Of a stretch of 27,445 bases of DNA, positions 18,285 to 19,844 are shown piece by piece; position 1 is the stretch's first letter; each line of letters begins with the position of its first letter. The notes below the pieces were generated by a model. That model saw only the letters and a program-made list of their open reading frames with translations. It made no database searches and had not been told where the DNA came from. This DNA is from Thermoplasmata archaeon (GTDB lineage Archaea > Thermoplasmatota > E2 > DHVEG-1 > B18-G2). The translations under genes were made by a program, and so were the position numbers. The stretch lies in the NCBI GenBank assembly GCA_021163455.1, contig JAGGWT010000027.1, forward strand, positions 1 through 27,445. Reading direction: 5' to 3'.

Positions 18285-19037
18285 TTATTCTTTCTCAGAT
18301 TCCTCTGATTTTTCCTCCTCTGGAACTTCTTCCTTTTCCTCCGCTTTTTCCTCGGTTTCAGACTTCTCTTCTTCTTTCTTTTCTTCCTTTGGAGTCTCTT
18401 TTTCCTCTTTCTTAACTTCCTCCTCTGCGGTCTCCTCGGGAACGGGTCTCTTCAAAAGTTCGGTTTTGTATATCTCGACTCTTCTGAGATGATAGAGCTT
18501 CTTACACGCTTTGGATATCTCCTTGGGAAGCTCATCTTCCATTATGCCTTTGATAAGTTCATCCAGAGTCCTTTCTCTGGCATATGACTCGATAACTTCC
18601 CTCATCATCTCCCTTAATCTGTGCTTTAGAGAGGTCTGTATTCTCTTATCAGTTGTTGCAAGCGGTTTTATCCTTATTACGGCACCGTCTCTGGTTGTGA
18701 CATCAAACACACCGTCTATTTTTGACCTCCTTCTCCTCACCAGCCTTCTGACATAATCGTTCGTCATGGAATGTCCTATAAAGTATGTATGAGCATCGGT
18801 CCCATCAACGTTATCTATCTTGAAGTAGAGCTTTATGTGCGATTTCCTGAAATCACCCGTAAGGTCTTGGAGAGAGACCTCAGCAACTCTGTTTATGAGC
18901 AGTTCCTGACTCGCTGCGGGGGTTTCTGCTATCACAACGTTGTTGAATAGAGATGGCGCTAACACTCTGTACCAGACCTTTGCTTTCCATTTATCCTTGA
19001 TCTTTCTCGCGGCTACCCTTGCCTTTGCTTTTGCCAT
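18285..19037 (-). CDS. rps3ae: 30S ribosomal protein eS1 (S3Ae) with a long acidic tail
   Basis: KIKDKWKAKVWY, LINRVAEVSLQDLTGD, IKLYFKI, DYVRRLVRRRRSKID and RRVEIYK. RBS AGGTGG before ATG 19037. Confidence 0.95.
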   Translation of the reverse strand: MAKAKARVAARKIKDKWKAKVWYRVLAPSLFNNVVIAETPAASQELLINRVAEVSLQDLTGDFRKSHIKLYFKIDNVDGTDAHTYFIGHSMTNDYVRRLVRRRRSKIDGVFDVTTRDGAVIRIKPLATTDKRIQTSLKHRLREMMREVIESYARERTLDELIKGIMEDELPKEISKACKKLYHLRRVEIYKTELLKRPVPEETAEEEVKKEEKETPKEEKKEEEKSETEEKAEEKEEVPEEEKSEESEKE

Positions 19038-19072
19038 GTTGAACCACCTGGAGGTGGTAATATGATATATGA

Positions 19073-19083
19073 TACTTAAATTT
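19073..19083 (-). promoter_or_regulatory. TATA box of rps3ae
   Basis: Minus-strand AAATTTAAGTA; implies a transcription start near 19049-19050. Confidence 0.55.
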
Positions 19084-19098
19084 ATATGGTAGTGAGGT

Positions 19099-19112
19099 AA
19101 AAAGAGAAGAAA
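19099..19112 (-). terminator. Pyrimidine/U-tract terminator of the H/ACA RNA
   Basis: TTTCTTCTCTTTTT begins 3 nt after the final ACA box. Confidence 0.6.
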
Positions 19113-19254
19113 GATTGTCGGATGCCAGGGTATCCTCCTCATCATTTGGGGACACCCAGTCCCCTTCATCTGGGAGGGACCCCTGCTGGCATCCCTGTCG
19201 CCTTGCGCTTGCACCTCTGATCATCGAATCACAGAGGCCTTCGATACAAGGCAT
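19113..19254 (-). ncRNA. Box H/ACA pseudouridylation guide sRNA with two hairpins
   Basis: Hairpin 1: GCCUUG/CAAGGC lower stem, pocket, GCCUCUG/CAGAGGU upper stem, K-loop (UGA-UUCGAU-GAU), then G-ACA at 19198-19196. Hairpin 2: GGAUGCCAG/CUGGCAUCC, pocket, CCUCC/GGAGG, K-turn (AUGA with AUGAUGA), apical GGGGAC/GUCCCC, then G-ACA at 19118-19116. Pocket-to-ACA spacings are 14 and 15 nt. Ends are approximate. Confidence 0.85.
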
Positions 19255-19768: not shown

Positions 19769-19841
19769 GCCGGCGTAGCTCAGCTGGTAGAGCGGGTGAC
19801 TCGTAATCACCAGGTCGAGGGTTCAAATCCCTCCGCCGGCT
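19769..19841 (+). tRNA. tRNA-Thr(CGU), no intron, CCA not encoded
   Basis: Acceptor GCCGGCG/CGCCGGC, D arm GCTC/GAGC, anticodon arm GGTGA-CTCGTAA-TCACC (CGT at 19802-19804), T arm GAGGG-TTCAAAT-CCCTC, discriminator U. Confidence 0.97.
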
Positions 19842-19844
19842 CTG

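Follow-up and report, generated by a model that had tools for sequence, protein, structure and literature searches.

We report that a stretch of 27,445 nucleotides from a Thermoplasmata archaeon (GenBank assembly GCA_021163455.1, contig JAGGWT010000027.1, positions 1 to 27,445; hereafter the window) carries a real, well-conserved and unannotated RNA gene, and that this RNA is a new member of a well-known RNA class, the archaeal box H/ACA guides. Taken together, our data make it very probable that positions 19253..19113 of the minus strand encode an independently transcribed double-hairpin archaeal H/ACA small RNA (sRNA), in which hairpin 1 is directed at U2496 of the 23S ribosomal RNA (rRNA; Escherichia coli numbering unless another organism is named) and hairpin 2 most probably at the A-loop. 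Its expression as a discrete RNA, the binding of proteins, the modification and the target of hairpin 2 are what we infer from these data. The RNA, its elements and its flanking signals are as follows.

19253..19113, minus strand: the whole two-hairpin box H/ACA guide sRNA, 141 nt (covariance-model match of 155 bits, E = 3e-44).
19290-19284 and 19283-19278, minus strand: promoter, consisting of a CCGTAAA resembling a B recognition element (BRE) and a TATA-like TTTAAT, read from the sequence.
19252..19200, minus strand: hairpin 1 with lower stem, pocket, upper stem and kink-loop (K-loop), from fold and covariation.
19245..19239, minus strand: 5' guide strand of hairpin 1, AUCGAAG, pairing with 23S CUUCGAU (2498-2504).
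19231..19220, minus strand: K-loop of hairpin 1, a predicted L7Ae site with U.U, G.A and A.G over a 6-nt loop, read from the sequence.
19212..19207, minus strand: 3' guide strand of hairpin 1, GCAAGC, pairing with 23S GCUUGC (2490-2495).
19198-19196, minus strand: internal ACA box, 14 nt past the upper stem of hairpin 1.
19194..19120, minus strand: hairpin 2 with lower stem, pocket, upper stem, kink-turn (K-turn) and apical stem-loop, from fold and covariation.
19185..19178, minus strand: 5' guide strand of hairpin 2, CAGGGGUC (class consensus GGGUC).
19171..19142, minus strand: K-turn and apical stem-loop of hairpin 2, with AGA as 5' strand (G.A/A.G partners 19170-19169).
19133..19129, minus strand: 3' guide strand of hairpin 2, AUACC(C) (class consensus N-Y-A-A-C-C).
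19118-19116, minus strand: terminal ACA box, 15 nt past the upper stem of hairpin 2 and followed by AUC, 3 nt, before the U-tract.
19112..19099, minus strand: pyrimidine/U-rich tract UUUCUUCUCUUUUU, 14 nt, read from the sequence; putative terminator.

BLAST retrieved the sequence from all seven other genomes of the family and from two more distant genomes, and a covariance model built from a MAFFT alignment of nine copies matched 104 of the 118 genomes of the order, a single clear copy being found in each (plus a weak second match in one of them), including 42 of its 43 high-quality genomes; in a sample of the class 119 of 151 genomes had a match. In the nine-sequence MAFFT alignment 92.8% of the cells are paired compared to 38-46% with slid partners, compensatory changes occur at 14 of the 34 pairs, and the pocket strands, the G.A letters and ACA are invariant. 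Among 48 homologues the corresponding numbers are 92.6% (37-47% with slid partners) and 27 of the 34 pairs, a count reached in none of 500 shuffles; this alignment was fitted to the model and is therefore biased towards the structure, a bias that the MAFFT alignment does not have. The compensatory changes support all four stems. Moreover, the minimum free energy (MFE) fold computed with RNAfold recovers both hairpins, each followed by ACA (-63.8 kcal/mol, z = -3.2), none of 200 shuffles folds as well as the 141-nt RNA, and its G+C content is 57% compared to approximately 40% in the surrounding part of the window. The minus strand is fixed by the G.U pairs of the stems, the ACA boxes, the promoter and the U-tract; a plus-strand reading folds equally well, but it would have neither ACA boxes, K-turn polarity, promoter nor terminator, and the G.U pairs would become A.C.

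Both hairpins show the structural features of archaeal H/ACA RNAs, i.e. stems with a pocket, an ANA box spaced 14-16 nt from the base of the upper stem and a K-turn or K-loop. In hairpin 1 the lower and the upper stem comprise 7 bp each, the latter closed by G-C; its helices 1/2 are 96%/88% paired, with compensatory changes at 5/6 pairs, and the letters GA...UGA of the K-loop are invariant in nine relatives. The lower stem of hairpin 2 has 9 bp, with compensatory changes at all nine, and the upper stem (93% paired) consists of CCUCC/GGAGG plus 2 bp with one bulged A, while GGUCCCU of the 5' side is invariant in the nine-sequence alignment. The 3' strand of the K-turn, AAUGAUGA, provides an AAU bulge and GA (19146-19142), in the orientation known from archaeal H/ACA RNAs, and AUGA of this strand as well as AU of the 5' strand are invariant in the same alignment. 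From the pocket through the G.A pairs both hairpins have 10 stacked layers, made up of 7 bp, U.U, G.A and A.G in hairpin 1, and of 7 bp, the bulged A, G.A and A.G in hairpin 2; ten stacked layers between the pocket and the G.A pairs have been described for H/ACA motifs (PMC4652768). The internal ACA is invariant in nine relatives and reads ACA or AAA in 48 of 48 homologues. The terminal box is ACA in the genus of the window and AUA, AAA or AGA in many relatives (e.g. L046, L054 and L042), and the conserved requirement at this position is ANA; the AUA box of Haloferax volcanii is likewise an ANA form.

A preliminary description of this DNA, made from the sequence alone, had proposed the two-hairpin anatomy, and every element it listed was found on the minus strand, accurate to the base and with the spacings of 14 and 15 nt. 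The sequences of the two predicted L7Ae motifs named there (K-loop and K-turn) are present, with GA letters that do not vary in the nine relatives, and the check for covariation in relatives that it had suggested came out in its favour in both alignments. It was also right about an own BRE-TATA, which lies 25-37 nt upstream of the first base of the RNA (19290-19278); an A-rich BRE and a TTAAT/ATATTAA box occur at equal distance in 28 homologous loci, and the RNA therefore has its own promoter. The U-tract that it had placed after the RNA is there as well and likely represents an archaeal terminator.

With respect to function, L7Ae would bind both hairpins, at the K-loop in hairpin 1 and at the K-turn in hairpin 2, each lower stem together with its ACA box would be the docking place of Cbf5-Nop10, and each pocket would pair with rRNA on both sides of an unpaired U-N, thereby placing the U in the active site of Cbf5 where it would be converted to pseudouridine (Psi). 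Nop10 and L7Ae are both encoded in the genome (over the Pfam cut-offs), and Cbf5 is present as an N-terminal fragment of ~40 residues that is cut by the contig end (G000:C128:3-125, minus strand); in five of five family relatives Cbf5 is complete and over the curated cut-off. The runs holding the window stretch are hydrothermal-vent and marine-sediment metagenomes. In two metatranscriptome assemblies from one sediment sample only the RNA region, a piece of rps3ae (the gene downstream of the RNA) and a tRNA-Thr gene are covered of a 1.8-kb stretch, almost all of which is covered in the DNA run of that sample; we take this as a hint of transcription and not as proof of a discrete sRNA. The deepest-covered part of the stretch is the tRNA-Thr in both assemblies.

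For both hairpins, target 23S rRNAs were read from other families of the order and class. The 23S sequence GCUUGC-UA-CUUCGAU forms 6 + 7 = 13 bp with hairpin 1, with no mismatch or G.U pair in all four sequences of the order that were checked first, and other families of the class keep the target, differing by no more than a G.U change. We estimate the chance of finding 13 Watson-Crick pairs in ~4.4 kb of rRNA to be well below 1 in 1000. On the guide side, the (U/A)CGAAG core of the 5' strand is kept across the class and GCAAG of the 3' strand is invariant in the nine-sequence alignment. The target U corresponds to U2496, with U2496-A2497 unpaired (the alignment was calibrated on G2445-U2457, A2503/U2504 and U2552), and is located at the base of helix 89 in the peptidyl-transferase centre; hairpin 1 would hence guide pseudouridylation of U2496.

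This site has a precedent. Pseudouridines in domain V of the Pyrococcus abyssi 23S rRNA are found at 2549, 2554, 2585, 2588, 2603, 2672, 2685 and 2697, with four, two and two of these in helices 89, 90 and 93, respectively; Psi2588 is guided by Pab40 motif 1, as verified using N-cyclohexyl-N'-beta-(4-methylmorpholinium)ethylcarbodiimide (CMCT) and in vitro, and motif 1 of Pf7 and of Afu-4 has been proposed to act at the Psi2588 site too (PMC2377435). An offset of +92 between the P. abyssi and E. coli numbering reproduces the four/two/two distribution among the helices. The same offset gives the spacing of the yeast sites 2826, 2865 and 2880, which we take to be conserved among eukaryotes, and yeast Psi2865 is presumably the equivalent of U2496. 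Since the offset fits both the helix distribution and the spacing of the eukaryote sites, P. abyssi Psi2588 corresponds to E. coli 2496. Sharing its target with Pab40 motif 1, hairpin 1 thus appears to be the functional counterpart of an experimentally validated guide.

For hairpin 2, scans of the rRNA gave no site with a long uninterrupted match, helix 69 did not come up in any target scan, and searching the own genome (tRNAs etc.) yielded chance-level matches only. The candidates were therefore weighed by comparing the class-wide variation of the guide with the cognate 23S sequences. Most probably hairpin 2 would guide U2555 or U2554, with U2586 as a second possible or alternative site; for an A-loop U (helix 92) as the target we see the chances as evenly balanced. 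The A-loop sequence GGGGUUGUUCGCCC is conserved in the class, the 3' core of the guide, (C/U)AACC(C), is complementary to G2548-G2553, and guide position 2, which faces G2553, is always C or U. On the other side GGG(U/C) of the 5' strand pairs with G2557-C2560. The family with GGGCC instead of GGGUC keeps the G-C pair with G2557, while A2589 is mismatched at the U2586 site, and the one family with a G at 2561 has a U at the facing guide position. Overall, the A-loop pairing amounts to 10-11 bp, leaving U2555-C2556 (or U2554-U2555-C2556) unpaired together with one guide C at the junction. In class 23S rRNAs (L011, L012, L119-L126) the A-loop is closed by U2551.G2557 compared to C-G in E. coli, and the same sequences have GAUGUCGUCUC in place of the E. 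coli GAUGUCGGCUC (U at E. coli 2509).

The same H/ACA RNA might instead, or in addition, use hairpin 2 to guide U2586 in the peptidyl-transferase ring, which we consider unlikely. At this site GGGUU-UA-GACC pairs with AACC(C) and GGUC of the guide over 4-5 + 4 bp, i.e. 8-9 bp in total only, and archaeal H/ACA motifs often serve two or three sites (PMC2377435). U2586 corresponds to H. volcanii Psi2605 and H. marismortui Psi2621, and Muller et al. argue that its equivalent is the expected site of the analogous motif 2 of Afu-4 and Pf7 (PMC2377435). For Afu-4 motif 2 the assignment is debated, either Afu 2601, which equals Pab 2647, or Pab 2678 (PMC2377435); by the offset these disputed sites are E. 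coli 2555 and 2586, the two best candidates for hairpin 2 of the present RNA, and the guide variation in the class bears on the old question whether the second motif of such RNAs is directed at the A-loop or at U2586. Pairing at U2586 would not involve the two guide bases adjoining the upper stem, although only C or U occurs at position 2; moreover, guides of the GGGCC family give an A.C mismatch at the invariant A2589, and the A-to-C change found at guide position 4 in the own family would be opposite U2584, which is universally conserved. A third site, a hairpin in domain III with GGGUUA-G-UC-GGUCCUAAGG (E. coli ~1345), scored best for some guides in a flexible scan (5 + 8 bp) and was ruled out as the conserved target: the guides differ from one another whereas this site does not change, a C at guide position 2 gives a mismatch, and one family has a C in place of the target U despite a conserved pocket.

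Some observations weigh against the above interpretation, and three of these concern hairpin 2. First, the guide variant of the own family, AUACCC/GGGGUC, needs a one-base bulge at either site when paired with class-consensus rRNA; pairing with the A-loop would be regained through an rRNA change at the variable pair 2551-2557. Second, its best pairing of 6 + 4 bp, in which a guide base at the junction stays unpaired, is non-significant when considered alone. Third, the pocket strands of hairpin 2 can pair with each other through 3-4 G-C pairs, and both RNAalifold and the MFE fold close the pocket by GGG(U)/(A)CCC. Hairpin 2 could accordingly be an orphan or structural hairpin with a self-closed pocket, having a role in assembly or stability of the ribonucleoprotein or a target other than rRNA, such that hairpin 1 would be the sole guide; the outcome of the rRNA and own-genome scans agrees with this, and still we regard it as quite unlikely. 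Both pocket strands are nearly invariant class-wide and a G-to-A change in the 5' strand is not compensated in the 3' strand; uncompensated pocket changes argue for pairing in trans rather than in cis. Target arms that form a stem, as in the A-loop, necessarily yield a self-complementary pocket, and the self-complementarity of hairpin 2 is as expected for a target lying in a hairpin stem. In addition, hairpin 2 has retained its K-turn as well as an ANA box at a spacing of 15 nt.

The other contrary points concern the RNA and its particle as a whole. The metatranscriptome contigs are those of a related strain at a depth of ~3 and continue beyond the RNA on either side, so that they do not define the ends of a discrete sRNA. 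Searching Rfam gave no family match for the RNA at the gathering threshold, and with E up to 10 chance-level matches only (a trypanosomatid H/ACA RNA, E 1.6, and a C/D sRNA, E 3); specifically, HgcG (RF00064) had no match in the region at E up to 10 and none genome-wide at E up to 1. With the exception of a partial 16S rRNA in one relative (G001), no rRNA is assembled in the own genome, family or genus, and there is no 23S rRNA among these; metagenome scans with genus-specific 16S words returned one 2.6-kb contig having the 5' part of 16S only and no guide RNA. Finally, Gar1 (PF04410) was detected in none of the 118 genomes of the order, the own family and 43 high-quality genomes included. The PF04410 model also misses one of four archaeal control genomes, and Gar1 may be too divergent to detect rather than absent. 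In the order, Cbf5, Nop10, L7Ae and the guide RNA are present beside an undetectable Gar1, which points to either a very divergent Gar1 or a particle without Gar1.

Two- and three-hairpin H/ACA RNAs have been called rare in archaea (PMC7991803). Among those known, Pab40, Pf7 and Afu-4 (Pyrococcus and Archaeoglobus) are also multi-hairpin H/ACA RNAs with K-loop or K-turn motifs and ANA boxes, and the site of their motif 1 (Psi2588) is that of hairpin 1. However, these have three H/ACA motifs, the third of which guides helix 69, whereas the present RNA has two and no helix 69 guide; the third domain that follows hairpin 2 in most relatives (see below) is not of H/ACA type, unlike the third motif of Pab40, Pf7 and Afu-4. 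Rfam HgcG (RF00064) has no detectable similarity to our RNA, and because there is no match to the model and two motifs are present rather than three, the RNA is not a member of the HgcG family. Haloferax sR-h45 likewise carries a pair of guide hairpins on one RNA, its internal ANA box also functions as AUA, its K-turns are required, and one of its hairpins is also aimed at the peptidyl-transferase region (Psi2605, E. coli 2586). The targets differ, 2586 for stem-loop 1 and 1915/1917 for stem-loop 2 of sR-h45 compared to 2496 for hairpin 1, and the RNA is therefore not of the sR-h45 type; furthermore, the linker of sR-h45 is 56 nt while a single base separates ACA and hairpin 2 in the window. 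In yeast, snR46 (25S Psi2865) and snR10 (25S Psi2923) act at what we take to be the equivalents of E. coli 2496 and 2554 (offset 369), i.e. the site of hairpin 1 and the neighbour of the favoured site of hairpin 2. These are eukaryotic H-box/ACA small nucleolar RNAs, encoded by separate genes, with Nhp2 instead of L7Ae and a K-turn, and have no sequence relationship to the RNA reported here.

The preliminary description knew of no described guide in this lineage. This stands insofar as Rfam has no matching family and our full-text literature searches found no paper linking H/ACA guides to Thermoplasma-type archaea; nevertheless, the architecture and the hairpin 1 target are those of the known motif 1 of Pab40, Pf7 and Afu-4. 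The RNA hence represents a class-wide H/ACA guide family that is absent from Rfam, in a lineage of Thermoplasmatota-like archaea of vents and sediments. As read from the sequences, RNA-guided pseudouridylation of 23S U2496 would extend to an archaeal lineage beyond Thermococcales and Archaeoglobales, as in eukaryotes. For annotators, the alignment is ready for use as a covariance model, and it removes a spurious N-terminal extension of rps3ae, which brings us to the neighbourhood of the gene.

18285..19037, minus strand: rps3ae (ribosomal protein S3Ae, 250 aa; Pfam PF01015, 236 bits), the neighbour downstream of the RNA.
19214..19038, minus strand: spurious 59-codon N-terminal extension of the rps3ae open reading frame (ORF), overlapping the RNA.
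19769-19842, plus strand: tRNA-Thr (CGU), 516 nt upstream of the guide RNA gene and on the opposite strand.

In the ORF 18285..19214 the Pfam S3Ae domain begins at residue 69, and the Met at 19037 is residue 60; the domain thus starts 9 residues after ATG 19037, and the alignment with relatives starts at this Met. Accordingly, the 59 codons that precede it are spurious and mask the RNA, as had been suggested earlier. Rps3Ae relatives in a scan of genome contigs are ~50% identical and labelled Methanomassiliicoccales or Methanobacteriota. Given that the RNA and rps3ae share a strand, with the RNA 76 nt upstream, and that an ORF runs through the RNA, the latter might in principle be a 5' leader or regulatory element of rps3ae, or encode a genuine N-terminal extension of the protein, with no separate gene. 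This reading is to a large extent already refuted and we consider its probability negligible: among 30 homologous loci with flanks, rps3ae follows the RNA only in the source genome (G000) and its closest relative (G002) and is not downstream in the other 28; the S3Ae domain starts past ATG 19037; rps3ae is set apart from the RNA by the U-tract as well as a separate TATA-like box; and substitutions track base pairing rather than codons. Co-regulation with rps3ae, which the preliminary description had suggested from the adjacent position, is not supported by synteny, which is kept in two of the 30 loci only, and rps3ae has its own TATA-like box and Shine-Dalgarno sequence.

A different neighbour recurs. 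Seven genomes, representing six genera and two families, have the RNA in the same orientation as the 16S rRNA gene and 370-580 nt upstream of it (G011:C14, G045:C52, G081:C19, G095:C1, G034:C12, G098:C89 and G037:C79); these 16S-adjacent copies include the third domain. In three further relatives the RNA is on the same contig and strand as the 16S rRNA gene, 10-14 kb apart. Since the synteny with rps3ae is not conserved and 16S is a recurrent neighbour, the link between the RNA and ribosome biogenesis is real and runs via the rRNA operon rather than via rps3ae.

A conserved domain of ~100 nt directly follows hairpin 2, with no U-tract or promoter in between, in most members of the order as well as in two further genera of the own family (L036:1644-1740, plus strand; L046:1396-1501, minus strand; L033:1399-1500, minus strand; and 12 more loci); it is absent after position 19113 of the window, in whose genus a U-tract comes next. 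This third domain is a three-way junction with the closing stem UGUCGC/GCGACA. Its hairpin A shows compensatory changes and an invariant CUGCUGC loop, its hairpin B is formed by CACCCAAC/GUUGGGUG, GA and ACA in the junction are invariant, and A/U-rich sequence follows. No Rfam family matched the third domain, which lacks a pocket and a K-turn as well as an ACA at the correct spacing. The CUGCUGC loop is complementary to GCAGCAG in 23S rRNA (helix 91, ~20 nt 5' of the A-loop) and also to GCAGCAG near position 340 in 16S rRNA. A more far-reaching scenario, which we consider improbable, is that the order runs its H/ACA system without a recognisable Gar1 and, in most of its members, with a composite RNA of ~250 nt, in which the third domain tethers or chaperones the rRNA, and that the copy in the window is derived, having been trimmed and moved beside rps3ae. 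For the tethering or chaperoning of pre-rRNA, snR10 and snR30 would be analogues. The apparent lack of Gar1 and the third domain are leads on how minimal or elaborated archaeal H/ACA particles can be.

The G+C content of the guide RNA, 57% in the window, is 33-45% in most of the order. The 16S rRNA of the genus, which is partial, has 63% G+C compared to 55% in a sister family, and an insertion of ~15 nt in the first variable region (L021, corresponding to G001:C119:10-779, and L140). Together with the G+C content of the guide RNA and the origin of the runs from hydrothermal vents and marine sediments, this points to a thermophilic branch within an order whose members are mostly mesophilic.

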